Of a stretch of DNA of 64,000 nt, positions 1-59,519 are shown in pieces. Every line of letters starts with the position of its first letter. The stretch's first letter is position 1. This DNA comes from Vampirovibrionales bacterium (GTDB lineage: Bacteria; Cyanobacteriota; Vampirovibrionia; Vampirovibrionales; JAJTHC01). The stretch is taken from contig JBIIZQ010000005.1 in the NCBI GenBank assembly GCA_044346175.1, forward strand, positions 20,818 through 84,817, read 5' to 3'. The notes under the pieces were generated by a model that saw only the letters and a list, made by a program, of their open reading frames with translations, made no database searches and had not been told where the DNA came from. Position numbers and translations under genes: made by a program.

Positions 1-1
1 A

Positions 2-2172: not shown

Positions 2173-3309
2173 TCATATAGGCATTTGTAGGTCAGTAAAC
2201 GCCATGCAGGAAGTCGGGCAGCTTTGTTCAGAAGAGGGCTTGTTACATGGACATTGTTTGGATAATCGACACGGTACCTGATAAGGGCGTTGCGTCGTGA
2301 GGACACGATGCTCGGTAAGATAAGCGGGGGTTTGAGGTGTAACGGTTTTGGTGTGCCAAGCCCACGGATGCCACTGTGTTTCATCACTGGGGCCAAACAA
2401 TGCCACGCAGGGTACCCCCACCGAGGCCGCCATGTGTAAGCCTACGGAGTCAGCCCCAATAAAACAGGCACTTTGTTGTATCATATGCCATGTGTCCTCA
2501 AAAGAAAGCTTGCCCGCCAGTAGCACCACACGTTCCTTTTGAGAAGCCTCCAGTGGAAGCGCTTTAAAAAGGGCTTCAAGCCTCACGCCATCTTGATGGC
2601 TACCTATGAATGCGAACGTGATATTTGGGTGTGCCACCATACTTCTTTGTAACCAAGTGAGGAGTGCGTCAGGGTGCCAATCTTTTCGAGGGTTGGATGT
2701 AAACGGCTGAATACACCACCATGGTGCTTGTGTGATGGGGATAGTAACAGGAAGCGTCTTTGCTGCCACACTCAAAGGGTCGGGGGCGTAAAGACACAGC
2801 ACCTCATCCGACAGATAAGGTTTTTCAGAAGGCGTTCGAGGTAATGAATCAGATGGGTGAAAGAGTCGTAATAACTGTATCAAGCGTTCTATTTCATGGC
2901 CTGTGGTGGGGTAAGGCATGTGGCGATGCAGAAACCCCGCACGTCCTTGACCCGAAAACCCAACACGATACTTTGCAGGAATGAGTCGTGCCAATAACGC
3001 ACTGGATAAACTTTTTTTGAGTACCAGTATGGCATCATACGCCTTGGTGTGTTTGGCTATGGTTTGTGCCAGATGCCACACCCCGAAAAGCCCTTTGGGT
3101 TTAGGGTAGGGTAGTAGTGTAAGCTTCAATGAAGTGGCATAGCATGCCCACACAGAAGCTACTTGAGGCTCTACGAGAACATGAAACGGCACTTGAGGAT
3201 ACATCCTACGCAACGCCACTACCAAGGGGATACTCAAAATGGTATCTCCAAGGTAACGCGACGGTAGTATCAGCAAAGGTGCCTTGAGGGTGATAGCTTC
3301 CGTTGTCAT
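2173..3309 (-). CDS. Glycosyltransferase family 9 (LPS heptosyltransferase-like)
   Basis: The C-terminal motif GADSVGLHMAASVGVPCVALFGP is typical of GT9 (RfaF/WaaC/WaaQ-type). The N-terminal LILPSRYLGDTI matches the GT9 family. Confidence 0.7.
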   Translation of the reverse strand: MTTEAITLKAPLLILPSRYLGDTILSIPLVVALRRMYPQVPFHVLVEPQVASVWACYATSLKLTLLPYPKPKGLFGVWHLAQTIAKHTKAYDAILVLKKSLSSALLARLIPAKYRVGFSGQGRAGFLHRHMPYPTTGHEIERLIQLLRLFHPSDSLPRTPSEKPYLSDEVLCLYAPDPLSVAAKTLPVTIPITQAPWWCIQPFTSNPRKDWHPDALLTWLQRSMVAHPNITFAFIGSHQDGVRLEALFKALPLEASQKERVVLLAGKLSFEDTWHMIQQSACFIGADSVGLHMAASVGVPCVALFGPSDETQWHPWAWHTKTVTPQTPAYLTEHRVLTTQRPYQVPCRLSKQCPCNKPSSEQSCPTSCMAFTDLQMPI

Positions 3310-3345
3310 GTTAAATCGTCGTTACAAGGAAGAGAACAACCATGG

Positions 3346-4641
3346 CTATACTTTGGCTTCAAGGTAAGCAGCAAGGGCTTGGTAGGTCGCGGGTAAAGTC
3401 ACAATCTCTGTTTGAGATTTACCCACAGCCACAGCATTATCGGGGTCTTTCAAGCCATTACCTGTTAAAATACATACCGTATTGAATGTTTCACCTTGAG
3501 GTAACTTACCAAGACGGGCATGCTTTAATAAACCAGCAACGCCTGCTGCACTGGCAGGTTCACAGAAAATACCTTCTTGACGAGCCAGTAAAAAGTAAGC
3601 TTCAAGGATTTCTTCATCTGTGACACTGTCAATAAGTCCATGAGAATCCGTTTTAGCCGCCATGGCTTTATCCCAGCTTGCAGGGTTGCCAATCCGAATG
3701 GCGGTTGCCACCGTTTCAGGATGTGCAACAGGGTGTCCTAGTACCAAGGGGGCTGCACCCGCTGCTTGGAAGCCGAACATACGAGGAAGCCCCTCGGAGC
3801 GTCCCGCAGCTTGATAATCCTTAAACCCTTGCCAATAGGCACTAATATTACCCGCATTCCCTACGGGAATGGCTAAAATATCAGGTGCGGTGCCACCCAG
3901 TTGGTCGCAGATTTCAAAGGCACCTGTACGTTGTCCTTCAAGACGGTAAGGGTTGACGGAGTTCACGACGGCAATTTCAGGAGAGGTTTCTCCTAAGTGA
4001 CGTACAATGGTGAGGGCTTCATCAAAGTTACCTTGAATTTGCACAATCAATGAACCGTAAAGCATCGCTTGAGAAAGCTTCCCAAGGGCGATTTTACCTT
4101 CAGGGATTAAAATAATCGTTTCCAATTTGGCACGGCTGGCGTGTGCCGCCGCTGAGGCACTGGTATTCCCTGTACTGGCACACACAATGGCTTTGGCACC
4201 ATGATGTTTTGCCATCGTGACGGCGTAGGTCATACCACGGTCTTTAAAGCTCCCTGTGGGGTTCAAACCCTCATATTTAAGCCATACCTCAAAGGTGCTT
4301 CCTGAAAGTTTACTCAGTTCCTCGGACAGCCAAGGGGCGGGAATCAGGGGGGTATTGCCTTCATTGAGGGTAATGATTTCAACCCCTTCACTTTCAGGGA
4401 AGAATTCTCTGTAACGTGCTACCGCGCCTACACATGCCCGTTGATTCGGTTTTTTAGGGCAAGTTGTTGCCTGGCAATGAGGCGTTTTAACCTGAGTGGA
4501 AGACGTATCGCAAACGGATGACCCTGAAGCACAAGATGAAAGCATAAACAAACCCTGCCAAAGCCCATATATTAAAGTATATAAAGAAGCATCATAAAGA
4601 AAAGCGTAGCATACACGCATAACCCCCTCATTGTAGCACAA
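3346..4641 (-). CDS. thrC: Threonine synthase
   Basis: PLP-lysine motif SFKDRGMT, GNTSASAAAH, and the full-length TS fold signature. The first ~60-70 aa are Cys-rich and atypical, so the true start is probably an internal Met. Confidence 0.85.
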   Translation of the reverse strand: MCYNEGVMRVCYAFLYDASLYTLIYGLWQGLFMLSSCASGSSVCDTSSTQVKTPHCQATTCPKKPNQRACVGAVARYREFFPESEGVEIITLNEGNTPLIPAPWLSEELSKLSGSTFEVWLKYEGLNPTGSFKDRGMTYAVTMAKHHGAKAIVCASTGNTSASAAAHASRAKLETIILIPEGKIALGKLSQAMLYGSLIVQIQGNFDEALTIVRHLGETSPEIAVVNSVNPYRLEGQRTGAFEICDQLGGTAPDILAIPVGNAGNISAYWQGFKDYQAAGRSEGLPRMFGFQAAGAAPLVLGHPVAHPETVATAIRIGNPASWDKAMAAKTDSHGLIDSVTDEEILEAYFLLARQEGIFCEPASAAGVAGLLKHARLGKLPQGETFNTVCILTGNGLKDPDNAVAVGKSQTEIVTLPATYQALAAYLEAKV

Positions 4642-4770
4642 GGGATAACCCTAGGGCTATGAGGGTCTGTCTTTGAGAGTGCCAATGTCATCCTGCCCTC
4701 TATAACAAGACACATGACAACTTGATACGCATTCGTTTACACTGGAGCCATATCGTTTAAATGATAGCCC

Positions 4771-6000
4771 ATGTTCCAAGTATTCCATACGACTCGAAAC
4801 CCAAAGGTGTTGTTCTCAAACATGTTGAAACTCAAAGCTCTCTTTCTTGCCCTAACACTTATGATAGCTCACCCTTGTTGGAGCTGGGCAAACCCATCAG
4901 ACCCTCAACCCATTGAAAAACCCATCTCTCAAGTCTCAGAATCGGGTGCCAAGGAAGCCTCCGCACAAAAAGCTATTGACGATTACACCAAAGCCATTGC
5001 ACAAGACCCTACCAATCCTCAATATTACATCCAAAGAGGCTTAGCAAAAACATCATTAAAAAATGAGCAAGGCGGTATTGAGGACTTCACCAAAGCCATC
5101 CAGTTGGATAACTCGCTCGCCTTAGCGTACATTTTAAGAGCCATCTCGAAACAACAACTTGAAGACTTTACGGGTGCCATAGAAGACTGTAACCAAGCCA
5201 TTGCCTTACAACCTCATAAGGATTTTTATATCCTCCGAGGCAATGTTTTACTTCAAAATCACCAATACACTTTAGCCATTGAAGATTACAACAAAGTCCT
5301 CAAGCTAGATAAAGACAATGCAGACGCTTACGCTTTTAGAGGGTATGCAAAAAAAGGACTAAAACAGTACCCTGAAGCACTCAAAGACTTGAATAAAGCC
5401 ATTACACTTAACCACCAGTGTGTGGAAGCTTACTTTCAAAGAGGCCTGATAAGAAGCCTATTCAATGACCACACCAAGGCTCTTGAGGATTTTAACAAAG
5501 TCATTGCCTTAGACCCAAGCCATGCAAATGCCTATTACAACCGAGGCAACCAAAAGGTAAAGCTGGAAAACAGAACGGGTGCCATTGCAGATTACACCAA
5601 AGCCATCAAACTAAAACCCAATCATTTCCGTGCTTACCACAATAGAGGCTGTGCGAAAAGCGAGTTAGGGAACTACCTAGGTGCCATTAAGGATTTTAGC
5701 AAAGCCATTCAGCTGGAACCCAGTAGTGCTGAGGCTTATCGCTACAGGGGTGGCTCAAAGTATGGCTTGAACCGCTATACGGAAGCACTTGAAGACCTTA
5801 ACAAAGCGATTGAGATTAACCCTTTATATGCTGATGCTTATCGTTGTAGAGGTATCGTAAAAGCCTACTTGAAAGACAAAAAGGGTTCTTTTTCTGATAT
5901 GGAAAAAGCCAAGGCACTCTTTCAAGCAGAAAACAATGTCGAGGAGTATCATAAAACAGTTGAAGACCTCAAGAGAGTCAACGAACTGCTTAGAAATTGA
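4771..6000 (+). CDS. Secreted TPR-repeat protein
   Basis: About 10 consecutive 34-aa TPR units (AYxxRGxxKxxLxxYxxAIxDxxKAIxLxP). The signal-peptide-like MLKLKALFLALTLMIAHPCWSWA begins at the internal Met (~nt 4822), which is the likely true start. Confidence 0.75.
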   Translation: MFQVFHTTRNPKVLFSNMLKLKALFLALTLMIAHPCWSWANPSDPQPIEKPISQVSESGAKEASAQKAIDDYTKAIAQDPTNPQYYIQRGLAKTSLKNEQGGIEDFTKAIQLDNSLALAYILRAISKQQLEDFTGAIEDCNQAIALQPHKDFYILRGNVLLQNHQYTLAIEDYNKVLKLDKDNADAYAFRGYAKKGLKQYPEALKDLNKAITLNHQCVEAYFQRGLIRSLFNDHTKALEDFNKVIALDPSHANAYYNRGNQKVKLENRTGAIADYTKAIKLKPNHFRAYHNRGCAKSELGNYLGAIKDFSKAIQLEPSSAEAYRYRGGSKYGLNRYTEALEDLNKAIEINPLYADAYRCRGIVKAYLKDKKGSFSDMEKAKALFQAENNVEEYHKTVEDLKRVNELLRN

Positions 6001-6012
6001 TAAACGTCTATC

Positions 6013-6960
6013 ATGCTTGCCTCCCATAGTCGTGAACTTAAAACTGAAGCCCTTGTCCTGAAAGCCTGTGACTGGAAAGAAACTGATAGGCTCCTATGGG
6101 TGTTGCTTCCTTCCGAAGGGCTGAGTAAAGTCATCGTAAAGCGAGCCAGAAAACACGGGGCTTCCATGGCAGGTGCCGCCCAAGCCATGGCATGGCATAC
6201 CCTTCACTTAAAACGCATGGGGAGCCAAACCCTTAGTAATCCCCTACGTTCAGGGAGTGGCACCCAACCCTACTCGCAAATCACAGGTACGCTGGGGAGC
6301 GAACCTAGCTGGTGGGTACTTGCACAATACGTCCCTCAGCAGATGTTTCCTAAGCTAAAAGCCCATATGCCGAATCATACTTTGGCGATGTTAGCCTGTG
6401 AAATGACGCTTGGTGTTTTAGAAGCAGGGGGCGGTGTTCTTGAAACAACCTCTCAAGAAACCTCACAACCCTACCAAGCCTTATGGACGCATGTACTGGC
6501 ACTGCTTAACGTGTTAGAAACCTCTCCTACCGAAGTGACGCACACCCAAGAAGTGACACCTTGGCACTATGTGGTGCTACTGCGTTGGTTGAGGAAACTT
6601 TTGCATTTGGAAGGTTGGTTAGCTGAGGAGTCGTTGTGCTTACGTTGTGGCATCACGTTGATAGACTATCCACACGCCATTTACTGGGATGCGGAAGCCC
6701 TCGGAGGGGTTTGTCATGACTGTGCTACCACGCACACCGCATCACAGACGGACACCTCAAGATACTCTCAATCCTCCATGCTTACCCTACTAGGCACTGA
6801 AGAAGCCCAAGCATGGTGCCATCAGTTTGCCCCTTTTTGGCATATGCCCGCAGAGGTTAGGTTACAGTATGGGGCTTTGTTACAACAATGGCAAAACCGA
6901 CTGCTTGATGCTTGGGAAAGGCAATACGGGCGAAAGCTTCATACCCGTTGCTTACTTTAA
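6013..6960 (+). CDS. recO: DNA repair protein RecO
   Basis: RecO-like N-terminus (EALVLKACDWKETDRLLWVL) and a C-terminal Cys cluster CLRCG...CHDC typical of the RecO zinc-binding domain. Confidence 0.55.
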   Translation: MLASHSRELKTEALVLKACDWKETDRLLWVLLPSEGLSKVIVKRARKHGASMAGAAQAMAWHTLHLKRMGSQTLSNPLRSGSGTQPYSQITGTLGSEPSWWVLAQYVPQQMFPKLKAHMPNHTLAMLACEMTLGVLEAGGGVLETTSQETSQPYQALWTHVLALLNVLETSPTEVTHTQEVTPWHYVVLLRWLRKLLHLEGWLAEESLCLRCGITLIDYPHAIYWDAEALGGVCHDCATTHTASQTDTSRYSQSSMLTLLGTEEAQAWCHQFAPFWHMPAEVRLQYGALLQQWQNRLLDAWERQYGRKLHTRCLL

Positions 6961-6979
6961 CGCTTTTAAAAAGTCCTTG

Positions 6980-8014
6980 TTAAGAGTGACTCTCTAAACG
7001 AGGGTTACTTGCCCAGCCCAGTTTTTTACGGAGCAGGTCGTAAAATTCAGAAGCCTGACCTGAAAACCGCACTAACGATAAACTTGTACTTGCCGTTGTC
7101 ACATGAATCGCTTCATTGGGTTGAATACTAAAGAGTTCCATACCGTCCATGGTGACAACTAAAGGCGTTTGGTGCCGAGGTTCACACACGACGGTCAATA
7201 CAACACTGGCGGGAATAACAATAGGCTTGGCGGAAAGGGAATGCGGACAAATAGGGGTGAGTACTACCGCTGAAAGTTCAGGGCTTAATACGGGACCTCC
7301 TGCCGCAAGGCTATACGCCGTAGAGCCACTGGGCGTAGAAATAATCAATCCATCCGCATCGTAAGTTGCAAGGGGTTTATTATCAAGAAGTACGGATAAC
7401 CGAGAAAGCTGAGAGGCTGTACCACTTTTAACCACAACATCGTTAATCGCAAAATGATTCCCAAGCTGGAGCATCATACGAGACTCTAGCTCGTACTCGC
7501 CTCGGCAAAGTCGTCGGATAGCCTCGGGGATACGTTCTTTTTCAATACGAGTTAAAAAGCCTAAATGCCCTGTGTTAATGCCTACCATGGGTACTTGTAA
7601 ATAAGCAAGACGTTGGGCTGCACGTAAAAAAGTACCATCGCCCCCTAGGACAATGATGAGGTCAAAGCGAATGTCTGGTAGACCCTCTTGAGACCATGCC
7701 ACTAACGCAGAGGTGCTATGATGTACGGCTTTGAGAGGCTGGCTGCGGTCAAGGCGCTGATGGGTCACTTGTGTTGACACAACCTCAATGCCTTCTCGTG
7801 TGAGCAAGTGGGTTACAAGAGAGGCTAAACGAGCTTGTTCGGCTTCATCGGCAATGGTTTGACTCGCTGCCCCCTGATGCGTTACAAGTAAGACGTGCTT
7901 TATTAAGCCCTGAGGCACCGATAAACCAGACTCAGAACGTATCTCCGAGGTATCCATTGCTTCAAAATCCATCGCACAAACCTGACAATGCCTTACGCTA
8001 ACCCAAAGGCACAA
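6980..8014 (-). CDS. nadK: NAD+ kinase
   Basis: GGDGTFL motif and DGLIISTPSGSTAYSLAAGGP motif. It overlaps panC by 17 nt at its 5' end. Confidence 0.85.
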   Translation of the reverse strand: MCLWVSVRHCQVCAMDFEAMDTSEIRSESGLSVPQGLIKHVLLVTHQGAASQTIADEAEQARLASLVTHLLTREGIEVVSTQVTHQRLDRSQPLKAVHHSTSALVAWSQEGLPDIRFDLIIVLGGDGTFLRAAQRLAYLQVPMVGINTGHLGFLTRIEKERIPEAIRRLCRGEYELESRMMLQLGNHFAINDVVVKSGTASQLSRLSVLLDNKPLATYDADGLIISTPSGSTAYSLAAGGPVLSPELSAVVLTPICPHSLSAKPIVIPASVVLTVVCEPRHQTPLVVTMDGMELFSIQPNEAIHVTTASTSLSLVRFSGQASEFYDLLRKKLGWASNPRLESHS

Positions 8015-9095
8015 GAAGATGATTATCCAATAAACGTACTCTGGGGACTTCTTCAGAAGACCGTTTGATTTGAGAAACGCCCGCTAGCAGTAACGTAGCC
8101 TTCTCTTGCTGATACGCCTGCCAACATGCGTCTAGTGTATCTAAGGTCGTCCAAGTATGCCACTGTTTTACTAAAAGATACTCCTTATGGCTCCAAGGTG
8201 CAACGTCTTGAGGGGCTTCCTGATGACAACGTTTCCAGTGGGCATCCATCCACGCTTCAAGTGAAAGTGTCTCTTGAGGAGGTGTATCGGACTGACAGAC
8301 ACGTAAAAGAGATTCCCGTATGACCTGCAATGTGCAGGCAAACAATTCACCAGCTTGATACATCGCTTCTGTTTCGAGGTAGCGGTTTCTGGAGCTTTTC
8401 GCAAGCCCTTGGGGTATTGAGCATGCTTGTGCGAAAGAAGAGCATGGCTCTCGTACAATCGGGTGTGAAACAATCTCAACGGAAAGCATCAACTCGGCAA
8501 CCATATGTTGGATGACTCGGAGCTGTTGGGCATCTTTTTGTCCAAAAACGGCCACATGCGGTTTTACACACTGCATGAGCTTAAACACCACCGTGGCAAC
8601 CCCTGTAAAGTGTCCTGGTCGGGTTTTTCCGCACATATCATCGGTCAACCAATGAGGCGGCGTAATCACAGTGCGTTCGGTATGGTCTGCCTGTGCGAAT
8701 GTATCAGGATACAGCGTTGTGACAGAAGGTGTCCACACGGCATCAACCCCCACACGTTCACACAAGGTAAGGTCTTCAGTAAGCGTCCGAGGATACTTTG
8801 AAAAATCTTCATTCACACCAAACTGAAGCGGGTTGACAAAGATACTTACGACGACTTTTTGTCCTTTCAGTTTAGCAAGCTTCATCAGTTGAAGATGCCC
8901 TTCGTGTAAGGCACCCATGGTGGGTACCAGTACGACACGTTGGCTGAGGTCTTCTTGTTCGTTTCGCCAAGTTTGAAGGGATTCCAAAGTCGTGAGATGT
9001 TGCATCAGGTAGGGTCTCCTTGAGGGGCTGAAACCTCTGAAGGGAGTCCTAAAAGCATTTTTACGCCCATGGTCAAGGTATAACGGGCTTGCCAA
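7998..9095 (-). CDS. panC: Pantoate--beta-alanine ligase with a ~80-aa C-terminal extension
   Basis: VPTMGALHEGH (HxGH), KLKGQKVVVSIFVNPLQFG, and GQKDAQQL motifs. The ORF track uses a TTG start; an internal ATG (MQHLTTLESL) about 30 codons in would abut the upstream epimerase stop. Confidence 0.8.
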   Translation of the reverse strand: MASPLYLDHGRKNAFRTPFRGFSPSRRPYLMQHLTTLESLQTWRNEQEDLSQRVVLVPTMGALHEGHLQLMKLAKLKGQKVVVSIFVNPLQFGVNEDFSKYPRTLTEDLTLCERVGVDAVWTPSVTTLYPDTFAQADHTERTVITPPHWLTDDMCGKTRPGHFTGVATVVFKLMQCVKPHVAVFGQKDAQQLRVIQHMVAELMLSVEIVSHPIVREPCSSFAQACSIPQGLAKSSRNRYLETEAMYQAGELFACTLQVIRESLLRVCQSDTPPQETLSLEAWMDAHWKRCHQEAPQDVAPWSHKEYLLVKQWHTWTTLDTLDACWQAYQQEKATLLLAGVSQIKRSSEEVPRVRLLDNHLLVPLG

Positions 9096-10072
9096 TCAGG
9101 GAGGGGGGTAACGGCATGCTGGGGCGGGGTGAACATCTCTCGGGTACGGTAGGGGTATGCTCCCCACTGTGGTTGAAGTGCCGTTTCAGGAGGCAAATGG
9201 GCGTTAAAACAAGCCACTACTTCTTGGAGCGTTACAGTATTCGGGGACGGTAAAGCGTACTGTGCCGAGAGGGTGGTCATATTGGGAAGTGTTTTAGTCA
9301 CGGCATGCGTGAGTGCGTCGCAGAGGTCGGTCTCGTAAAGAAAATGGAAGGACTGGCGTATGCCATCAGTCAATTGGATGGGTTGTCTTTCAGTGAGAGG
9401 CGTTAATGCCGCTTGACGCAGTATCGGTAATACCTTACGACGTGTGTCACTTACGCCATAGGTGTCGTAAAGTTTCAGGGTTAAAGTTGGTAGGGTGTAT
9501 ACCTCGGTATAGTATTGTAGTAGGGCTTCAAAAGCCTGTTTGGTAGCGGCGTAAAGATTCACAGGTGCATAAGGGGCATCTTCAAAATGTTGCCATACTG
9601 TTCCCATGTTGAGTACCCACCCAAACCTATCTGTTGTGGTATGTGCTTGCTGATGGGTACGTTGCTGATGTACATAACGTCCCCAAGCCTCTAAGCACAC
9701 GGTACCAAACAGGATATTGCTTTCTATCAGGGTTGCCAACTGATGAGGTTGATGTTCGCCTAAAAAGCAAGTGGCAAGATGTAGGAATCCTTCAGGGCGA
9801 TATTGATTGAGGTTCTCAAGTAAAATTTCAAACCACATGGCATTATCCACAGGTAAGGATACTAAAGTAGCACCCTGTGTTTGAAGGGCTTGTGCTTGAC
9901 TAGTACTTACATCACGCACCACACATACCACATGCCACCCTAAATTTAACCAGTGTGGTACCACACACTGCCCCACAAACCCCGTTGCTCCCGTGACCCA
10001 CACCGTGGGTTTGGGATGAGGTGTATTGAGGGCTTTTTCTGAAGAAGGGTTTGTCAGCTTAGAGAACATCAT
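9005..10072 (-). CDS. NAD-dependent epimerase/dehydratase (SDR family)
   Basis: N-terminal Rossmann motif VWVTGATGFVGQ, and Y(ATK) in YAATKQAFE consistent with the SDR catalytic YxxxK. Confidence 0.7.
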   Translation of the reverse strand: MMFSKLTNPSSEKALNTPHPKPTVWVTGATGFVGQCVVPHWLNLGWHVVCVVRDVSTSQAQALQTQGATLVSLPVDNAMWFEILLENLNQYRPEGFLHLATCFLGEHQPHQLATLIESNILFGTVCLEAWGRYVHQQRTHQQAHTTTDRFGWVLNMGTVWQHFEDAPYAPVNLYAATKQAFEALLQYYTEVYTLPTLTLKLYDTYGVSDTRRKVLPILRQAALTPLTERQPIQLTDGIRQSFHFLYETDLCDALTHAVTKTLPNMTTLSAQYALPSPNTVTLQEVVACFNAHLPPETALQPQWGAYPYRTREMFTPPQHAVTPLPDWQARYTLTMGVKMLLGLPSEVSAPQGDPT

Positions 10073-10485
10073 AAGTGTAAGGCATGATTAAGGAGAGAGT
10101 GAGGTTTGGGTAGAGGGCTTAGGTGTTGAGCCATGTTACAGGAAAGGTTGCAGGCGATGTGACAGGCAATGACATGGGCAGAGGGTTTAGGCTAATGGAG
10201 GTTAAAGCCTTCCTCCATAGTGTACCCTAAAGCCCTTAGAGAATATAGTGCTATCTGGATGGAAAGCCCGTATAGCGTATCTTATTCTACCGATATTTTT
10301 AGTAGGAGGCGATTTGTAATCATCCCGTTTTTTAAGTATCCCCATGGGTTAGGGGTGACAGACACTTACGCTTTGTATATAAAACAAACAGTTACTAGGG
10401 TGGATGAATCTTTTTATGGTATTTTTGTAAAAATATTGTAATAAGTATAAATCTTACGCTCCCAAAAATGCGACCTATTTGACAC

Positions 10486-12468
10486 ATGTCCTACGGTTTT
10501 TTCTCATTGTTACTTAAAATAGTATTCGTGGCTTTGTTAGTAATCCCCTTGGTGGGCATCATCGCAATGATGCTTGTTTGTATAGAATTACTCGTTTTAG
10601 GGTATCTAACAGTTACACTGATTAGAATATGCTCTTGGATTAAGCGCGCAGGGGGAAAACTGGTTTCCGACATTTGGTCACTTTGGGTAGATATTCATCC
10701 TTTCAAGAAAGAATTTTGGAATGGGCATTCCTTTAGCTTGCTATTCCATACATGCCATGATGTCCTGATGAAAAACTGGCTTTCGGATAACGCCCTAGTA
10801 GACATACTGGAAATGTTGGCTGACCGTTTTGCCTCTTTCTTTATGCGTATTATGACTATCGTATGGGATATGCTGAAAGTTGGTTTACTCGTACTGATGC
10901 CTTCTATCATTCTAGTTCTTACAGTGCCAAGCTTTAGAAACAAACCCCAGATAGAGTCGGTTCTTCAAGCGTGTAGCAATAACGCTCTAATACAGGATTT
11001 GTTTTACAAAGCCAAAAAAAACGAAAACGATTCTTCCAAATCCCAAATTGATTTCCAGAAGCTTGCCGAATTTATTAGAAACAAACCCCAGATAGAGTCG
11101 GTTCTTCAAGCGTGTAGCAATAACGCTCTAATACAGGATTTGTTTTACGAAGACAAAAAAAACGAAAACGATTCTTCCAAATCCCAAATTGATTTCCAGA
11201 AGCTTGCCGAATTTATTGGAAAACTTACCGTTCTTTTTGCAGCCTTAACCTTGATATTTAACTACTACAAGCACCGTAATGATGAAGCCAAAAACCTTAT
11301 TAAAGACTGGCTTCATACCTCTGAAGGAAAGCTCATTTGTGATGTGCTTGAAAATGAACTTTCAGTGATTGAACACCCTTTTCATAAACAAGACAAAGAT
11401 AAAACTGACTTCTTAGTAGATTGGAGCTATACAGGGCCTGCAACACTCATTATTCAAAGTAAAACCGATCCAAAGTTTAAGGATTTATCTTTAACGTTTG
11501 CACAGTGGTGGCTAAATGCTTACAACCTGATTGAAAAAGATGACTCCAAAGACCGCTCCTATGCTGATGTTTTAAGCAAAGCCATAAGACCATTTAGCCT
11601 ATGTCTGACACAAAACGAAGCATGCAAGGAACGCAAGGAATGCCAAGAATGCAAAAGCATCACAACATTAAAAGACTTACTAGAGGTTTGTAAAACCATT
11701 GCGGAACAAAAGGGAAACGGCATTTTTATACGTACGATGCAGGGCTATCCCGAACTATTAAAAGGTTTAGAACATGAGGTAAGGGAGCAACATTTCTTTA
11801 ACGACATTCTTTCGCCAGACCTTTTAAATAAAACGCCTGAGCAATTGCTGGTGTCTCCTACGACCCTTATCACCTATACTTATTACTTCTTATCAAGACG
11901 ATATCTATCAGTTATCAATGCTTTTTACAATGCTATTGCGGATAAAAAAGTAAACTTGAGTTATGCAGAAAAGCAACTCATTTTCGCTTTTGATACCTTT
12001 TTTCAAAGCTTACGTAAGGTGGCACTGAGCATCAAACAACGCAACGTGACGTATGACGATGTAGAACCCACCGTATGGTATTGGCTTGACCGTATTGAGT
12101 ATCTCATTGTAGAAGGTAGACTTAAAGACCCTAAATACGAATACTACTCTTTCGTTGCCCATTATATTATAAGAGACTACCCTGAGATTTTTGAACTCCT
12201 TGCACGTCGACATCTTGATTGGCAAATCAGCTGGCGTAAGCCTCGGTATCGAACCTTAAAGCAACAAAAACATCGTGAAGCTTACAATGCTGTGATTAAA
12301 AAGATGATTTCAGACAATGAAAAAGCAATGAAAAAAGCTACAGAAACCCCCTACGAACCTTTAAAATTCTATGAAGACCTCGCCATTGAGCTTTCTGAAC
12401 TCAAACGAATCCAACTCCTCAAAAAGAGTCTTTACGTGAGGATGAAATGCGAAAGCTTAAAGGAGTAG
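10486..12468 (+). CDS. Hypothetical membrane protein with a bilobed N-terminal hydrophobic domain, an internal 47-aa tandem duplication and a K/E/N-rich C-terminus (effector-like)
   Basis: The gene is distinctly AT-rich compared with its flanks. There is an N-terminal ~45-aa bilobed hydrophobic segment and a second TM segment. No recognisable catalytic domain. Confidence 0.5.
   Translation: MSYGFFSLLLKIVFVALLVIPLVGIIAMMLVCIELLVLGYLTVTLIRICSWIKRAGGKLVSDIWSLWVDIHPFKKEFWNGHSFSLLFHTCHDVLMKNWLSDNALVDILEMLADRFASFFMRIMTIVWDMLKVGLLVLMPSIILVLTVPSFRNKPQIESVLQACSNNALIQDLFYKAKKNENDSSKSQIDFQKLAEFIRNKPQIESVLQACSNNALIQDLFYEDKKNENDSSKSQIDFQKLAEFIGKLTVLFAALTLIFNYYKHRNDEAKNLIKDWLHTSEGKLICDVLENELSVIEHPFHKQDKDKTDFLVDWSYTGPATLIIQSKTDPKFKDLSLTFAQWWLNAYNLIEKDDSKDRSYADVLSKAIRPFSLCLTQNEACKERKECQECKSITTLKDLLEVCKTIAEQKGNGIFIRTMQGYPELLKGLEHEVREQHFFNDILSPDLLNKTPEQLLVSPTTLITYTYYFLSRRYLSVINAFYNAIADKKVNLSYAEKQLIFAFDTFFQSLRKVALSIKQRNVTYDDVEPTVWYWLDRIEYLIVEGRLKDPKYEYYSFVAHYIIRDYPEIFELLARRHLDWQISWRKPRYRTLKQQKHREAYNAVIKKMISDNEKAMKKATETPYEPLKFYEDLAIELSELKRIQLLKKSLYVRMKCESLKE
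10936..11217 (+). repeat. Intragenic near-perfect tandem duplication (2 x 141 bp, 47 aa each)
   Basis: agaaacaaaccccagatagagtcggttcttcaagcgtgtagcaataacgctctaatacaggatttgtttta... is repeated head-to-tail with only 3-4 substitutions (K->E, A->D). Confidence 0.9.
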
Positions 12469-12603
12469 GATAGTCGAGGGGCTTGCGTCTGTGGTAGCAT
12501 AGGGCGTAAGTGTTCCGTCATGCGTTATAACTTAAGGCATGAACCCCAAAATGTTTCACCTGCTGTGTAGCCCCTACCATAGTTTTTAAAGTGTCGACCC
12601 CCT

Positions 12604-14478
12604 ATGATGATGACTCTGTCTCTTTCTTCGATTAAGCGATTCTTGATTGGTGAACCCCTCCGTACCAAGTTTGCCAAACATCAAAAAGTCAATGTCCCCA
12701 TGGGGCTGGCCATTTTTGCTGCCGATGCACTGTCATCCTCGGCATACGCTACGGATGAAGTTCTCATTGCCTTAAACGTGATGTTGCCTGGCGTGGCTGC
12801 TTCAGCCGTGATTCAGCAACTTGCCATGCCTGTGGCGGTTGCGATTGTATGGCTTATTTTATTAGTCGTTATTTCGTATCAGCAGGTCATTCGTGCGTAC
12901 CCTTCAGGTGGGGGGTCTTATATTGTTTCAAGAAGCAATTTAGGCGAAGGACTGAGCCTGGTAGCGGGTTCTGCACTACTCATTGATTATGTTCTGACCG
13001 TATCGGTGAGTATTTGTGCTGGTGTTGGTGCGATGGTCTCTGCGGGATGGATACCCCATGAACTCCAAGTCCCTGTTGCGGTTGGGGCGGATGTTCTCAT
13101 TTTAGGGATGAACCTCCGAGGGCTTAAAGAATCTGCTTCTGTGTTTTTGCTACCCTCTTTTTTGTTTATCGGTGCCATGGCGTTCCTGCTCATTTCTGCA
13201 CTGTATCAAATGTTCACAGGCTCTTTGCATATTTTGCATCCTGAACCCGTTGCCCAACAAGTGGCAGGGTCGGGGCTTGGATTGTTCCTCGCTTGTAAGC
13301 TGTTTTTTAATGGCTTCTCACACGGTTGTGCAGGCTTAACAGGGATTGAGGCTGTTTCAAATGGTGTGAATGCCTTCAAAGAACCCGCCTCTAAAAACGC
13401 TAACGTAACGATGATGTGGATGGGTACCATTCTGGCGGCTATCTTTATTGGCATGACGTATTTTGCAGTCAAAATTGGCGTAGTACCTATAGAAGGTAAA
13501 AACGTGGTTTCCCAGTTGGCAACCGCTGTGTTTGTAGGACAGCCCATCTTGTTCAACATTGTGATGTTTGCAGTCATGCTGATTCTGATTCTAGCGGCTA
13601 ACACTGCGTACTCTGACTTCCCAAGGGTGTCTTCATTCTTGGCAGACGATGGCTTTTTACCGCGCCAACTCATGAGTATCGGCGACCGCCTAGTGTTTAG
13701 TAATGGGATTATTATGCTGGGCATCATTTCGATGCTCCTCATTATTTTCTTCAAAGGCGACACCCATGCCTTGATACCCCTTTACTCGGTGGGTGTATTT
13801 ATTTGTTTTACCCTCACACAATTGGGCTTAGTGCGGCACCACCTGCGGGAAAGAGAAAAAGGATGGCAGCTGGGGATGTTAATCAATGGCATGGGGGCTG
13901 TGATTACAGGGATGGTGCTTGTTGTGTTGGCGGTTGAAAAGTTCCTTGAGGGTGCTTGGCTTGTATTTATCGCCATACCGTTGCTTATTTATATGTTTAA
14001 GTGTATTAAAAATCATTACAAATCAGTGGGGAGACAGCTTGCACTCCCTGAGGCAACCCATTGTCCTGTGAAGGTTGAACACACCGTCTTGGTGCTAGTG
14101 GCTTCTTTGAACCGTGGAACGATTGCCGCCTTGGAATATGCAAAGTCTATCAGTGAAAGAGTTGAAGCGGTTCACGTTGAGCTTAAACCTGAAGCCACAC
14201 AACGTTTACGCCATATCTGGGATGATTGGGGATGCGGACTCCCTTTAACCATTCTTAAATCGCCTTACCGTACTCTGGTGAATCCTTTGATGGATTATAT
14301 CGATGAGGTAGAAGGACGATATGACCATGACCTTGTAACGATTGTGATTCCTGAGTTTGTCACCAAAAAAATGTGGCATAACATTCTTCATAACCAGACC
14401 GCTTTTTACTTGAAGGCTATCCTATCCCGTAAAAAAGGGAAAGTGGTTACGACCGTAAGGTATCATCTTGAAGAGTAA
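12604..14478 (+). CDS. kimA: KimA-family (APC superfamily) K+ transporter with a C-terminal regulatory domain
   Basis: The N-terminus (IKRFLIGEPLRT...ADALSSSAYATDEVL...AYPSGGGSYIVSRSNLGEGLSLVAGSALLIDYVLTVSVSICAG) closely follows the B. subtilis KimA/YdaO N-terminal pattern. 12 TM segments are followed by a ~150-aa cytoplasmic domain. Confidence 0.65.
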   Translation: MMMTLSLSSIKRFLIGEPLRTKFAKHQKVNVPMGLAIFAADALSSSAYATDEVLIALNVMLPGVAASAVIQQLAMPVAVAIVWLILLVVISYQQVIRAYPSGGGSYIVSRSNLGEGLSLVAGSALLIDYVLTVSVSICAGVGAMVSAGWIPHELQVPVAVGADVLILGMNLRGLKESASVFLLPSFLFIGAMAFLLISALYQMFTGSLHILHPEPVAQQVAGSGLGLFLACKLFFNGFSHGCAGLTGIEAVSNGVNAFKEPASKNANVTMMWMGTILAAIFIGMTYFAVKIGVVPIEGKNVVSQLATAVFVGQPILFNIVMFAVMLILILAANTAYSDFPRVSSFLADDGFLPRQLMSIGDRLVFSNGIIMLGIISMLLIIFFKGDTHALIPLYSVGVFICFTLTQLGLVRHHLREREKGWQLGMLINGMGAVITGMVLVVLAVEKFLEGAWLVFIAIPLLIYMFKCIKNHYKSVGRQLALPEATHCPVKVEHTVLVLVASLNRGTIAALEYAKSISERVEAVHVELKPEATQRLRHIWDDWGCGLPLTILKSPYRTLVNPLMDYIDEVEGRYDHDLVTIVIPEFVTKKMWHNILHNQTAFYLKAILSRKKGKVVTTVRYHLEE

Positions 14479-14515
14479 GTCTTCTGAAAGTCAGTGCCAT
14501 TTTTTATCTCATACG

Positions 14516-14585
14516 GTCATACCGACGAAAGTCGGTATCCAGCTCCTTATGCCTCTTGGATTCCGACCTGCGTCGGAATGACGAC
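14516..14585. repeat. MITE/REP-like palindromic element, copy 1 (two hairpins)
   Basis: Hairpin 1 is gtcATACCGACgaaaGTCGGTATcc. Hairpin 2 is ggATTCCGACctgcGTCGGAATgacgac. The same termini occur in inverted orientation at 41965..42085. Confidence 0.8.
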
Positions 14586-14696
14586 TTAGGTTGTAGTGAA
14601 TATCTCCTACTTTAAGGCATGTACCCTATTGGAGCATTGCTTTCAAAAAGTCTCATCAAAAATTAAGCATCCAAGTAGTATCTATTGTTTGGACAT

Positions 14697-14706
14697 ATGG
14701 TATAAT
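14697..14706 (+). promoter_or_regulatory. Candidate extended -10 promoter (TGgTATAAT) upstream of ORF 14839
   Basis: atatggtataatac is read directly in the AT-rich intergenic region, ~130 nt upstream of the 14839 start. Confidence 0.3.
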
Positions 14707-14838
14707 ACATGAAGATGTTCAAATGATTTAATCGTTTTAAAGTGTGTTTTGTTAAAAACGTCTTCCCTAAACTATCTTCTTGACTACCTTCATAAAAGTC
14801 CTTAAGAAGATACATACTCAACAGACCTTTTAAACCTC

Positions 14839-15792: not shown

Positions 15793-16767
15793 GTGCCTTG
15801 CTCCTTATCATGTTCTCTTGATGCTTTAAGTCCTAAAGAGTCCTTTATGCCTTTTGATGCCATGCTTGACCAGCCCCCAAGTCCTCACCTGCCAGGGGTT
15901 CATCTCTCTGAAACATGGATTGACCAGCTCATCCATGTCGTACTGAGTTATGTTGAGATTGGCTCCCTTGTACTTGTGTTTTTGTGGGTTTATTGGCGAT
16001 TCATTCGAGGCAACCAAGCCGAACCTCTACTGAGGGGGCTTTTACTCATTTTATTGGGGGTTATGGGGATATGGCTCCTTGCTAGGGCATTCCATTTTAC
16101 CCTTTGGGAGAGTCTTATCAGCTTAGGTACCCAACTTTTTTTAGTGGGTCTGATGATGATTTTTCAACCCGAGTTGAGGCGTATTCTGCTTTATATTGGG
16201 CGAACCTCTTGGCTACAAAAAGTGTTACAAAGTTTAGGTCTCGGGCTGGAGCAGGACCGAGAAATCGCCACGCTCAACGCTGAAGAAATGACACGTTTTT
16301 TACAACGTATGGGCGAAACGGTAAGGTATTTAAGTAAACGACAAATGGGTGCTTTAATGGTGATTGAGCCTATGAGCTTGAACCGTCATGAACTGGCCTA
16401 TCAAGATGAATTTTTAGAACAGGGGGTACTCCTCCATGCACGTCTTTCGGCTGAACTGCTCATTACCTTGTTTCACCCCAATACGCCTTTGCACGATGGT
16501 GCATGCCTCATTCGGGCAAGAGGTTCTAAAGTTGTGGTGGCAGGGGCATTACTCCCATTAACAGAAGACCCCCATTTAAGCTGGCAATACGGAACCCGAC
16601 ACCGTGCCGCTATAGGTCTTAGTGAAACCTCACCCTGTGCTTGTGTTGTTGTGAGTGAAGAAACAGGGATGGTTAGTTTTGTGCATGAAGGTAAAATCCA
16701 GCGCACCAAAACGATTGAAGAACTCAAACAGTACCTCAAACAATACCTTACCTCTTCAGGGACTTAG
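15793..16767 (+). CDS. cdaA: Diadenylate cyclase CdaA (c-di-AMP synthase), membrane-anchored
   Basis: Three N-terminal TM helices followed by a DAC domain with HDGACLI (DGA motif) and GTRHRAAIGLSETSPCACVVVSEETGMVS (RHR motif). The true start is probably the internal Met MPFDAML. Confidence 0.8.
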   Translation: MPCSLSCSLDALSPKESFMPFDAMLDQPPSPHLPGVHLSETWIDQLIHVVLSYVEIGSLVLVFLWVYWRFIRGNQAEPLLRGLLLILLGVMGIWLLARAFHFTLWESLISLGTQLFLVGLMMIFQPELRRILLYIGRTSWLQKVLQSLGLGLEQDREIATLNAEEMTRFLQRMGETVRYLSKRQMGALMVIEPMSLNRHELAYQDEFLEQGVLLHARLSAELLITLFHPNTPLHDGACLIRARGSKVVVAGALLPLTEDPHLSWQYGTRHRAAIGLSETSPCACVVVSEETGMVSFVHEGKIQRTKTIEELKQYLKQYLTSSGT

Positions 16768-16768
16768 C

Positions 16769-18820
16769 CTAAGCCGTGACACGCTGAGGTGCTGAAGGGG
16801 TCATGCTCGGTAAATGGCTCGAAAAATGGGGTGGCTCTACCGTTAATACGCCCAGTTTTTCTCGTTGGCGACGTTTTTCTAACGAATTCGTCACCCAAAT
16901 ACCTAATTGTGGTTCAAGGAAAGCAAGTAAGGCGACAGAAATGGCAGCACTCGTTAGGGTGACACGATTTTGTGTATGTTTTACACGGGCGACTAAGTCG
17001 GGCAAGTGCTTGATTTGAGACTCACTTAACCGTAAGGCATGTTGCATCATGGGGCGTGTAATTTCTTGGGCATCTCGGCGTACACTGTAATCAGCCGTTT
17101 TAAACAGGAGTTGATGGCCTACTTGCTTGCTTTGCTCAAAAGTCATTAAGCCATCCCGTACCAAGGTGTGCATAAGCTGTTTGTTTGCAAGACGGCTCAA
17201 ACCCTGGCGTAGCCACTGGGTTCCCCAAGTGAGGGTAGGGAATCCTAATATATTGTCACGCAGTAACGTTTCTCTAAAGTCGGCATCGTTTCTACTTTCC
17301 ATGAGACGAATGCCACATAAAGCCCCATACGTGAACTCCATTTGACGTAAGGTTGTAAAAGGAAAAGTACGCTCAAAGGACAGAAACTCTTTCATGCCCT
17401 TGGCAAAATCTAAACCCAAACGTCCCGCTTTCTGAGTCACAAAGTGTCGACCCGCTACAGCACCCAAAAAGCCGAAAAAGCCTGCACTTACAAGAGCAGG
17501 TGTCAAGTTGCCTTGTTTCAAACTTTCACGGATGTAGGGAAACCATTTCACGTGAGTTTTAGGGGTTGGCGTATTAGATGCTTGGACTGGTGCTTCTTTG
17601 CTTGCTTGGGGTGTCTGTCCAAAACGAGTTTGAAAGGTAGGCACTTGAGAAGAAGCGTAAGAGGCGTTGGTCTTTTGTGTTGACACTGCAAAAGGTTGGG
17701 TTGCACCCATAAAGGGGGTTGCCACGACCATGGCGGGTACTTTACTCAGCAGTCCAGAGGACGTATTGGAGATGGGGTGAGTACTAGCGGGGGTTGGATG
17801 ACTTAGGGGGGTATTTTTACCAAGGGATTTTGCTAATTTATCGTAGTGTTCCGAGATGGCACGGGTAGCAGGGTTGGTATCAGCCTGTGGCCCATAGCGT
17901 TTTACCATCATTTGACGTATCCAGTGAGGAATCATCAAAGAAATGCTAAAAGCAGCCAATGTACCAAGCCCCTGCCAAGGCTGATGTTTGAGTGTGGTTT
18001 CCGCCATATGTGCCAGTTTACTATCCCACGCATGCCCCTCATGGCGTGCCATGCGGGTAAGGTCATGCAAAATATTGGGTAGCGTGGTTTCAACAGGGTG
18101 TCCCGTGTGTGGGTGTTTTAAATGAATATCCAAACTAGGGAGGCGTAAAGCAGCCGCAAGGTTTTGTGCTTCATGCGTGTAGGGGTCTTGAGTTTTGCCT
18201 AAAAGGCTATCAAAGGCATGCCGAAAATGTCCGCCTGTTTGTTGTGCAGTGGTGGTTTCCCACTTGACCAGTTTATCCACAGCTTTTTGCAATGATGTTT
18301 GACCTAAAAGCCTTTCCTGTGAGGTCTCTTGGGTGATGGTGGAGGCTTGCGGGGACTGCACAAGCTTTTGTAATGTATTGAAAAAATCTTGTTGATGACG
18401 ACTTTTCTCGGCAATGGTTCTATACACCTCAAGACTATCAGCATCAATATTGTGTTGTATTAAGCCACCATGACGTTTGTCCAGATGTTTTCCTACAACG
18501 TAAGTTGCAAGTAGACCAGGTAAAAAGGTATCAGTAAAATCTGCCGCTGTATCTCGGATGAACATTTCCTCGCCAGCTTGTTTGTTTTTCTCACCCGTGA
18601 TGTCAAAGGTACGGTATTGTTGCTGTACAAACCTTGGTACGGTGTAACCAAAGGTCTGTTCCACAGCGTAACGTACGCCTTCTCCTCGGTTATATAAGCT
18701 ATCGGCAACCCCGTTCATCAGTTGCGTTGCAACAGAAGCACCCCCTGAAAAGCGTGCTGTTTGGGGTACACGATGCTTTGTTGGCGTAGGCAATGACAAG
18801 GCAGAAGAGGAAACGAGCAT
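16769..18820 (-). CDS. Large hypothetical protein (683 aa)
   Basis: A long ORF with a central S/T/P/Q-rich low-complexity region. No recognised motifs. Confidence 0.4.
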   Translation of the reverse strand: MLVSSSALSLPTPTKHRVPQTARFSGGASVATQLMNGVADSLYNRGEGVRYAVEQTFGYTVPRFVQQQYRTFDITGEKNKQAGEEMFIRDTAADFTDTFLPGLLATYVVGKHLDKRHGGLIQHNIDADSLEVYRTIAEKSRHQQDFFNTLQKLVQSPQASTITQETSQERLLGQTSLQKAVDKLVKWETTTAQQTGGHFRHAFDSLLGKTQDPYTHEAQNLAAALRLPSLDIHLKHPHTGHPVETTLPNILHDLTRMARHEGHAWDSKLAHMAETTLKHQPWQGLGTLAAFSISLMIPHWIRQMMVKRYGPQADTNPATRAISEHYDKLAKSLGKNTPLSHPTPASTHPISNTSSGLLSKVPAMVVATPFMGATQPFAVSTQKTNASYASSQVPTFQTRFGQTPQASKEAPVQASNTPTPKTHVKWFPYIRESLKQGNLTPALVSAGFFGFLGAVAGRHFVTQKAGRLGLDFAKGMKEFLSFERTFPFTTLRQMEFTYGALCGIRLMESRNDADFRETLLRDNILGFPTLTWGTQWLRQGLSRLANKQLMHTLVRDGLMTFEQSKQVGHQLLFKTADYSVRRDAQEITRPMMQHALRLSESQIKHLPDLVARVKHTQNRVTLTSAAISVALLAFLEPQLGIWVTNSLEKRRQREKLGVLTVEPPHFSSHLPSMTPSAPQRVTA

Positions 18821-19974
18821 AAAGCGTAAGGCAACTTCAATAACAGGGAAAACAAGGAGGAAACGGTGACCTAAGTAAGCCTTAAAGACTCAAGGACCAA
18901 TGGAGTCTCCCATGTAGAAGCAGCCATGCAATAATGCGTATGTTTTAAAACCTGTGTTGTGACAATCAAGAGAGTCGTAAGGGGATGGTGTTTTAATGAA
19001 ACCACCATACATAAACCCACTGTTAAACATTTTACTTTCATGGAGAACCAGTGTTTGCATTAAAACTTAAAGCTGAATGGGGTTTAAGGTTAAAGATTTC
19101 GTGCAGTAACGAGAGATTGATGCACGTCGTGATACGATAAAACACCCTCAACAAAAAGCAGTGCGTCCAAAACCCAAAACACATGCTAGGGTTCAGGGCA
19201 GCATGTGAGTTGAAAGACTCACATTGACTGCGATACACTTATTCAAAAATCCAAAAAAGCAACATGACACAATCTTGTAGCACTCCACGGAGGTTATGAG
19301 GGTCTTGAAACCTCAACATACCACTTCCATGACAGTTGTTGGGTATTAACCTCAACAACCAAGTATCTCTGTGCCTTAAGCAGGATACTTTCGGCATCAC
19401 TTCCCTTTTTGTGAAGTTACTTTAGAGATGGCACTCTAAGAAGAAACCAGGCAGTTTCAAAGGCAACCGCACATACTTTTGAAGGATGCACCTCTACAGG
19501 GCAATGTTATTATGCGTGAAATAAACCCACGATACAAGCCCTTATCTCTCATAAAGAAAGCATGTAACGCAAAGATGTAACATCCTGTGAATGTCGGTCT
19601 GGTGTCGTCCTGTAACGAAATGTTACAATCGGGCTTTTTTGTCAAAAGCAATCTTATTTCAAAGGGTAAGTTTGATGAAACTTTGTTAAAATAACAGGAT
19701 GCTCTTCTACAGTGTTAATAATGTAATAATGTTGCATTAAATGTATCTTTTTCATATACTCTATTTGTATAGAGTACTTGAGATAGATATTTTAAGCTCT
19801 GTTTTAGGCTGATACGTTCTGGTTTCGGTAACTGCCTGAGTGATGATATTCGTTTTAAATGATGTGTGTGTGCTACCCATTTGCTTCATCACAATGTTGA
19901 AACCTAGCCATTCTTTTTTATTCTCTAGATTGTTCACGTATTTTAAAATTGTTTCATAAGGTCTTACAAAGGAT

Positions 19975-59517: not shown

Positions 59518-59519
59518 TT

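Follow-up and report, generated by a model that had tools for sequence, protein, structure and literature searches.

What is a long AT-rich stretch with a single open reading frame (ORF) doing between two ordinary genes of a Vampirovibrionales chromosome, and did it come from elsewhere? The question is raised by a DNA stretch of 64,000 nucleotides from Vampirovibrionales bacterium (GenBank assembly GCA_044346175.1, contig JBIIZQ010000005.1, positions 20,818 to 84,817 of the forward strand), called here the window and numbered from its first nucleotide. A first-pass annotation, made from the sequence alone, had seen between 10.1 and 12.5 kb a horizontally acquired AT-rich island encoding a rapidly evolving, Inc-like membrane effector with a very recent internal duplication. 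Our analysis of the 660-amino-acid (aa) gene of this region, referred to below as the orphan gene, led to a more ordinary reading, to which we give a probability of about 0.65: a native, taxonomically restricted gene encoding a polytopic inner-membrane protein, and not a foreign island.

The orphan gene (10486..12468, forward strand, 660 codons plus stop) is the sole long ORF found from 10.07 to 12.6 kb in the ORF list, and it is a real coding gene. At the local base composition (38.5% GC), 660 stop-free codons are expected by chance with a probability of about 4×10−20. The GC content of the first, second and third codon positions follows a GC1>GC3>GC2 pattern, and an identical 660-aa product is called on two public contigs, of 139,134 and 152,814 bp. 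Shine-Dalgarno-like motifs are rare across the window, and since most of its genes have none, the missing motif ahead of the orphan gene is uninformative. No paralogue of the protein was found within the 64-kb window.

As had been noticed at first sight, the region is AT-richer than both of its flanks. The GC content of the orphan gene is 0.385 (z = −3.1 compared to the 43 other ORFs), versus about 46% for the window. In bins of 1 kb, it is 0.407 at 10001–11000 and 0.370 at 11001–12000, for a window mean of 0.458, and the stretch from 10.1 to 12.5 kb is the longest AT-rich one, though others exist. This deficit is confined to codon positions 1 and 2. GC1 (0.458) and GC2 (0.298) are both the lowest among the 44 ORFs, whereas GC3 is 0.399, versus 0.421±0.044 in the other ORFs (z = −0.5). 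A measure similar to the codon adaptation index, taking the rest of the window as reference, gave 0.718 versus 0.734±0.026 (z = −0.6). The protein was then re-encoded 2000 times, with synonymous codons drawn at the frequencies seen in the remaining 43 ORFs. This predicts a GC content of 0.3889±0.0066, where 0.3854 is observed (z = −0.53); for GC3, once the amino acids are given, z is −0.7, well inside the spread of the other genes. Because the re-encoded GC content equals the observed one, the “AT island” amounts to a protein rich in K, I, N, Y, F and D, and poor in G, A and P. Its enrichment concerns K (9.3% versus 4.7%), I, D, L, Y, E, N and F, and its depletion G (2.3% versus 6.5%), A, P, T and V.

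We conclude that the AT-richness follows from the amino-acid make-up of the protein, with no need for foreign DNA, and that there is no compositional evidence for a recent import of the gene. The GC and codon-usage comparison that the first-pass annotation itself had proposed thus turned against the horizontally acquired island, as the synonymous sites of the gene are typical of the window. More generally, low GC alone need not mean that a gene is foreign; here, the composition of the protein explains the whole deficit.

Other AT-rich places of the window are of different kinds. The patch at 19001–20000 (GC 0.379) is the leader of a lysine riboswitch, described below. Two small genes of low GC content, 60929..61414 (forward strand, GC 0.377, encoding a Polyketide_cyc2/SRPBCC protein) and 44681..45226 (forward strand, GC 0.408), have a GC3 that falls significantly short of what their amino acids lead one to expect (z = −3.6 and −2.9, respectively). 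By this test, a composition that is atypical or foreign is more plausible for them than for the 660-aa gene.

The protein has almost no detectable relatives. A word-indexed search of 5.8 billion proteins returned the orphan protein itself only, and an exhaustive phmmer search of 1.84 billion cluster representatives returned itself and one other sequence, P0007 (E = 4.6×10−25), a 105-aa hypothetical protein of the Joint Genome Institute metagenome contig Ga0654429_0131785 (locus L005). P0007 is 55% identical to residues 557–653 of the orphan protein (12154..12444, forward strand; alignment A1), a segment that we call the C-terminal module, and the two share the motifs RDYPEIFELxARRHLDWQxSWR and LSELKRxxLLKxSLY. 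A profile search with this module retrieved P0007 only. The 660-aa protein had no match in Pfam, NCBIfam, PHROGs or PADLOC, with 0 families at E≤1 in PADLOC-DB and PHROGs, and only a chance match among PDB sequences (E = 0.42). No relative came out of two scans of metagenome contigs, run with the full protein and with the C-terminal alignment, respectively, of a scan of viral contigs, or of a tblastn search against plasmids and phages.

Over the 99 codons shared by the orphan gene and P0007, pN is 0.36 and pS, which is saturated, 0.745, for a dN/dS ratio of about 0.13. With such a ratio, the C-terminal module is translated and constrained in both lineages, and it is therefore under purifying selection. 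The description of the gene as rapidly evolving is not supported by this value, nor by the comparison of two strains presented below, where the only comparable part of the orphan gene, its last 325 nt, shows 2 differences (0.6%) and kimA, the next gene, about 30 in 1875 nt (∼1.6%).

P0007 resembles the orphan protein in the C-terminal module only, and the GC content of its host contig and its neighbour gene both differ. Its gene (GC 0.533) lies at the very start of a 1846-bp contig of GC 0.585, with 33 nt upstream, and an in-frame stop is found 9 codons upstream of the homology; the downstream gene of the contig is unrelated. The last 30 residues of P0007 have a net positive charge (8 K/R versus 4 D/E). 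P0007 could stand as a small gene of its own, be a remnant, or owe its length to an assembly end and be the tail of a longer gene. Positions 1..34 of the same locus contain an 8-nt inverted repeat, CCTGACAC(N18)GTGTCAGG, which holds the in-frame stop mentioned above; this repeat could be a true hairpin, or an artefact of the assembly at the end of the contig.

Hydropathy analysis points to a membrane protein. On the Kyte-Doolittle scale, all windows over residues 1–52 exceed 1.6 without a break, with a peak at 3.06, which bears out the ∼45-aa bilobed hydrophobic segment first described at the N-terminus. This double segment covers residues 4–52 (10495..10641, forward strand), that is about 48 aa starting at residue 4 (MSYG|FFSLLL...), and was also detected with an additive Hessa scale, a simplified scoring applied to the most hydrophobic windows of 12–17 aa. 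It would consist of a first transmembrane (TM) helix, TM1 (residues ∼12–31, −2.5 kcal/mol), a turn of about 3 residues forming a polar break (C32-I33-E34), and TM2 (residues ∼35–52, −1.6 kcal/mol), followed by KRAGGK and a loop of about 70 aa (residues ∼53–121). A lipoprotein or signal-peptide N-terminus was considered and rejected, for want of a lipobox and because the hydrophobic run extends over 48 aa.

One more TM segment had been announced downstream of the double one. It is present, but two were found, which the Kyte-Doolittle profile places at residues 122–152 and 240–258. The third hydrophobic segment, TM3, corresponds to 10849..10929 on the forward strand (residues 122–148, predicted helix ∼132–148, Kyte-Doolittle peak 2.37, −1.6 kcal/mol over residues 134–145), and the fourth, TM4, to 11215..11268 on the same strand (residues 244–261, predicted helix ∼246–261, Kyte-Doolittle 1.94, −2.5 kcal/mol over residues 247–258). 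TM4 is followed by KHRNDEAKNLIK. The four segments thus score −2.5, −1.6, −1.6 and −2.5 kcal/mol. Averaged over 41 aa, hydropathy reaches 2.54 in the orphan protein, the maximum of the window, with 2.39 for FlhA and 2.00 for KimA. Lysines and arginines are clustered beside TM2, before TM3 and after TM4, and by the positive-inside rule this favours a topology with both termini in the cytoplasm. A location in the membrane is likewise what these profiles suggest.

The remainder of the protein, residues 262–660 (11269..12465, forward strand), would form a soluble domain of about 400 aa. It is rich in K, E, D, N and Y, which agrees with the long K/E/N-rich region noted initially; AlphaFold2 predicts it, with low confidence, to be all-helical in secondary structure, and it is probably cytoplasmic. 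It contains a cysteine cluster, C373-x6-C380-x5-C386-x2-C389-x12-C402 (nt 11602..11691, forward strand), and ends on 30 residues with a net charge of +2 (7 K/R versus 5 D/E).

The internal duplication is the other salient feature of the gene. Tandem Repeats Finder (TRF) reported a single array at 10934..11222, with a period of 141, 2.0 copies, 97% matches and no indels. Following a register check, copy 1 was placed at 10936..11076 (residues 151–197, RNKPQ...KLAEFI) and copy 2 at 11077..11217 (residues 198–244), both on the forward strand and 141 bp long (repeat family D1). The comparison in register gave 3 mismatches over 148 positions, that is 98% identity, so that the 47-aa unit repeated head-to-tail and the ∼98% DNA identity reported in the first place were both confirmed. 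The unit is exactly 47 codons long and in frame. Two differences lie inside the copies, 11008/11149 A/G (K174/E221) and 11012/11153 C/A (A175/D222), and turn KA into ED; the third opposes A at 11077 to G at 11218, and the identity at period 141 runs to 11222. All three are non-synonymous, which is not significant (neutral chance about 0.4, with an estimated 75% or so of non-synonymous sites).

The duplication had been called very recent; it is indeed young and real in the assembly, but the copies diverge by about 2%, similar to the 1.2–1.3% separating two strains, and for this reason it is not demonstrably younger than the strain split, unless the copies are homogenised by gene conversion. The copy number of two is a lower bound, as short-read assembly collapses identical extra copies. 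A replication slippage or an unequal recombination event could have produced such an in-frame tandem duplication of 141 bp. Copy 1 corresponds to the entire loop between TM3 and TM4, which would have measured about 46 aa before the duplication and now spans residues 151–244. Since exactly this loop was copied, the topology should not have been disturbed: the exposed loop would be lengthened, and the arrangement of the helices left unchanged.

The surroundings of the gene are those of an ordinary chromosome. The window encodes an NAD kinase, a pantoate ligase, RecO, FlhA, FliH, a cytochrome b, FtsH, the diadenylate cyclase CdaA, an NrnA-like DHH protein and a BcsA-like glycosyltransferase with PilZ, and the closest relatives of the neighbouring gene products are named proteins of Vampirovibrionales metagenome-assembled genomes (MAGs), identical or nearly so. 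Of the ORFs scanned in the window, about one in three is without a Pfam domain. An epimerase and a kimA-like gene do flank the 660-aa ORF, as had been proposed. The left one (9005..10072, reverse strand) is an epimerase/dehydratase of the short-chain dehydrogenase/reductase type (PF01370, E = 3.5×10−23), and the right one (12604..14478, forward strand) turned out to encode a true KimA homologue, matching Bacillus subtilis KimA (PDB 6S3K) end to end (E = 1.5×10−145).

A second strain, recovered from the Logan contigs of SRR33769842, is 98.8% identical to 6903..10256 and 98.7% identical to 12144..14817. Its contigs stop at 10256 and resume at 12144, and the repeat lies in the gap between them. 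One contig carries the last 107 residues of the orphan protein, with one substitution, directly upstream of kimA. Judging from this recoverable 3′ end, the locus appears stable within the species.

In the closest sequenced relative after this strain, MAG GCA_046080605.1, whose orthologues are 53–89% identical to the window proteins, the block GT9-PALP-RecO-NAD kinase-PanC-epimerase is syntenic with 2185..10012. Past the epimerase, this MAG has an M10-peptidase-like gene and others absent from the window. Ahead of its kimA gene come small YtxH-like ORFs, together with homologues of genes that the window has at 41 kb and of FtsH (39–41 kb in the window). It is at 12605 exactly that DNA similarity with the window sets in. 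The orphan gene was absent from both sides of the locus in GCA_046080605.1, and from its assembled proteome, which was part of the protein collections searched. The comparison of the two genomes therefore puts the orphan gene at a synteny breakpoint. With a single, fragmentary relative and this absence on both sides, the gene is lineage-restricted and does not belong to the core, as first supposed. As GCA_046080605.1 is a distant MAG with a rearranged locus, a lineage-specific origin and a loss fit the absence equally well.

Mobility marks were scarce, in keeping with the earlier remark that no integrase or tRNA flanks the gene. The sole tRNA of the 64 kb is a tRNA-Lys at 59519, 47 kb from the orphan gene, and no direct or inverted repeats flanking the latter were found. 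No integrase or mobile-element family was detected among the Pfam-scanned ORFs of the window, a scan that left out about 15 ORFs of at least 150 aa beyond 31.6 kb, so that the absence of integrase holds for the neighbourhood of the orphan gene.

Two observations were made on the same loci. First, a gene encoding a 409-aa TPR-repeat protein (4771..6000, forward strand, GC 0.424), placed between the RecO and PALP enzyme genes, is absent from the syntenic stretch of GCA_046080605.1 (locus L006, where the RecO-PALP gap is 450 bp), and represents a second lineage-specific insertion nearby. Second, in the related MAG sequence JBJTUH010000175.1, a MobA/VirD2-type relaxase gene (L001, 3161..4965; PF03432, E = 2.2×10−19) is located between glyQ and ftsH and follows a small ORF; the kimA gene of that MAG lies about 5 kb downstream. 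Mobile-element genes do therefore occur near the rearranged locus in a relative.

As for the non-coding sequences, the intergenic region from which the epimerase gene and the orphan gene diverge (10073..10485, 413 bp, GC 0.407), and which forms the left edge of the synteny break, contains no consensus promoter, terminator or Rfam match, and a 73-aa ORF within it (10220..10441) matched no family. The right edge is the 135-bp spacer between the orphan gene and kimA (12469..12603), just ahead of the point where similarity to the related MAG begins. No terminator-like site was detected there in the promoter/terminator scan, and with so short a spacer, the orphan gene may be co-transcribed with kimA. 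Overall, the scan yielded fewer sites than in shuffled sequences, none of them informative. Rfam gave no match over 9–15 kb at E≤1, hence no cyclic di-AMP (ydaO) riboswitch ahead of kimA.

Genes linked to cyclic di-AMP signalling are clustered in this part of the window, with KimA at 12604..14478, the CdaA-type cyclase at 15793..16767 (TIGR00159, 174.7 bits, just under the cut-off of 188.8), and the NrnA-like DHH/DHHA1 phosphoesterase at 24401..25621. The lysine riboswitch (RF00168) is full-length (19270..19504, reverse strand, 74.7 bits, E = 1.2×10−17). About 450 nt downstream of it comes a 683-aa ORF (16769..18820, reverse strand) with about two hydrophobic segments and no Pfam or NCBIfam match. 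This ORF may be an uncharacterised lysine-regulated gene, perhaps for a transporter or an exporter.

Taken together, these results are best explained by a native orphan gene, whose product would behave as follows. As a very hydrophobic helix is the first to emerge from the ribosome, insertion into the inner membrane of the producing cell itself is predicted: the TM1-TM2 hairpin would be recognised co-translationally by the signal recognition particle (SRP). The protein would then present, in order, this hairpin, the ∼70-aa loop, TM3, an extracytoplasmic loop, TM4 and the ∼400-aa helical domain, whose last ∼100 residues are the sole module conserved outside the lineage. Our best guess is an envelope-anchored scaffold or sensor, with its conserved cytoplasmic tail binding a partner.

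Several points weigh against this proposal. The role is a guess, and the topology comes from hydropathy and the positive-inside rule applied by hand. AlphaFold2, which had been suggested as a check, gave a pLDDT (its per-residue confidence score) of 43.8 for the full protein and 45.9 for residues 264–660, low values that provide no confident fold and no support at the fold level. The copy number of the repeat rests on a metagenome assembly, in which identical extra copies would collapse. Finally, amino acids biased towards AT-rich codons also fit an old transfer from an AT-rich donor whose synonymous sites have been ameliorated, and the position of the gene exactly at a rearrangement breakpoint, together with the presence of P0007 in a contig of 58.5% GC, fits a movement between lineages.

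These last points lead to the alternative that survives best, albeit an unlikely one: the gene would have been acquired horizontally long ago, with an AT-rich donor or a mobile element not yet sampled as its source, and inserted at a rearrangement-prone site, after which its synonymous sites were ameliorated. The extreme GC1 and GC2 values and the exact coincidence with the synteny break speak for it; moreover P0007, like the orphan gene, is AT-richer than its contig, and the relaxase gene near kimA in the relative indicates that mobile DNA visits such regions. On the other hand, neither integrase, tRNA, att-like repeats nor mobile-element genes flank the gene, phage, plasmid and viral collections contained no homologue, and both GC3 and codon usage are indistinguishable from those of native genes. 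The high proportion of scanned ORFs with no Pfam domain also means that lineage-specific genes are common here, and transfer need not be assumed to account for them.

A horizontally acquired secreted membrane effector, Inc-like and exported by a type III secretion system, or exported by an Agrobacterium-like type IV secretion system (T4SS), and inserting into the membrane of a host or prey, is quite improbable. Inc proteins are chlamydial proteins of the inclusion membrane, with a bilobal domain of 40–60 aa and an N-terminal type III signal; the bilobal domain has two TM helices of 15–32 aa separated by a loop of 3–22 (<30) residues (PMC3048545). The orphan protein falls within this definition as regards the domain (∼48 aa, turn of ∼3 residues), its gene is restricted to one lineage in a variable locus, and its order includes a predator, Vampirovibrio chlorellavorus, predicted to use an Agrobacterium-like, conjugative-type T4SS for effector delivery (PMC4451040). 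The bilobed domain is, however, not specific, since FlhA and KimA in the same window have a comparable hydropathy over 41 aa. As the hydrophobic run starts at residue 4, there is no room for an N-terminal type III signal, and flagellar proteins (FlhA, with its FHIPEP domain, and FliH) are all that was seen of type III components in the window. The Inc-like label is thus reduced to the bilobal domain, the N-terminal signal, the phylum and the two-TM layout all being at variance with it. We infer that, outside Chlamydiae, an Inc-type effector cannot be diagnosed from a bilobed hydrophobic domain.

Hydrophobicity raises a further difficulty for secretion. Segments of −2 to −1 kcal/mol are in the range recognised by SRP, and about 80% of the TM effectors of Legionella, Coxiella and Brucella T4SS surveyed, together with type III substrates, have values from 0 to +1 kcal/mol, with usually 1–2 TM segments in the T4SS effectors (PMC12981334). 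The orphan protein has four segments at −1.6 to −2.5 kcal/mol. A minority of TM effectors are nevertheless highly hydrophobic, and their secretion can take a two-step route, with an intermediate in the inner membrane (PMC12981334). The four strong segments thus make export less likely, while this route might still be open to the orphan protein, whose last 30 residues, like those of P0007, carry a net positive charge. Such a tail bears a superficial resemblance to the C-terminal signals of VirB/D4-type systems. Against export by this system, no T4SS gene was present among the window ORFs scanned with Pfam, and the synonymous codon usage of the gene is native.

Still more doubtful is a specific version of this scheme, a T4SS TM effector directed at prey or host, which would be inserted into the inner membrane, extracted and translocated, with the conserved, positively charged C-terminal module serving as the domain for translocation or for recognition by the coupling protein, and the duplicated loop as a variable surface exposed in the target membrane. 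If true, predatory non-photosynthetic cyanobacteria would gain their first defined effector family, and only if secretion into prey were shown would the gene become important.

That the duplication or the whole ORF might be an assembly artefact, or the gene a decaying pseudogene, is highly improbable. The sequence does come from a metagenome assembly, the contigs of the second strain, made from short reads, break within the gene, and the two internal differences lie near the middle of the repeated block. The period of 141 equals the largest default k-mer of the MEGAHIT assembler. Nevertheless, spanning reads are needed to assemble the junction between the copies, and a strain-variant bubble gives rise to no such junction; the duplication keeps the reading frame exactly, the same product is found on two contigs of different lengths, and the ORF is intact with a C-terminal module under purifying selection. 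Equally improbable is a membrane-anchored single-gene defence or toxin module of the abortive-infection type in a variable locus: N-terminal TM helices with a C-terminal soluble domain are a common layout of defence effectors, and the gene is AT-rich, lineage-restricted and at a synteny breakpoint, but it has no PADLOC or PHROGs match at E≤1, no partner genes, housekeeping neighbours (epimerase, KimA, CdaA), and a position outside any defence-gene cluster.

Returning to the native orphan gene, three known systems can be set beside it. With Inc proteins, it shares a double-helix hydrophobic domain with a very short turn and a larger soluble helical part. It differs from them in that its hydrophobic run leaves no hydrophilic N-terminal signal segment, in having two extra TM segments and a hydrophobicity in the SRP range, and in belonging to an organism that is neither a chlamydia nor a known inclusion-former; no sequence similarity to any Inc family was found in Pfam, NCBIfam or by phmmer. 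The T4SS TM effectors of Legionella, Coxiella, Brucella and Rickettsia resemble it by their TM segments and by its conserved, net-positive C-terminal tail, but typical members have one or two moderately hydrophobic segments where the orphan protein has four strong ones, and it shows neither homology to an effector family nor T4SS genes nearby.

The closest resemblance is with ORFan genes carrying in-frame tandem duplications. Like these, the orphan gene has no homologues beyond its species and a near relative, a composition skewed towards AT-rich codons, a position at a synteny breakpoint, and a loop expanded by a young duplication. It is much longer, at 660 aa, than typical de novo ORFans, and differs from typical ORFans in holding a module that is clearly under purifying selection and shared with a lineage of distant GC content. 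The sequence family is undescribed, but the phenomenon is an ordinary one, which combines an ORFan, a low GC content driven by amino acids and an in-frame tandem duplication. To an order that is in part predatory and of which little is known, it adds one lineage-restricted family of membrane proteins, and it draws attention to a small conserved C-terminal module, RDYPEIFELxARRHLDWQ...LSELKRxxLLKxSLY.

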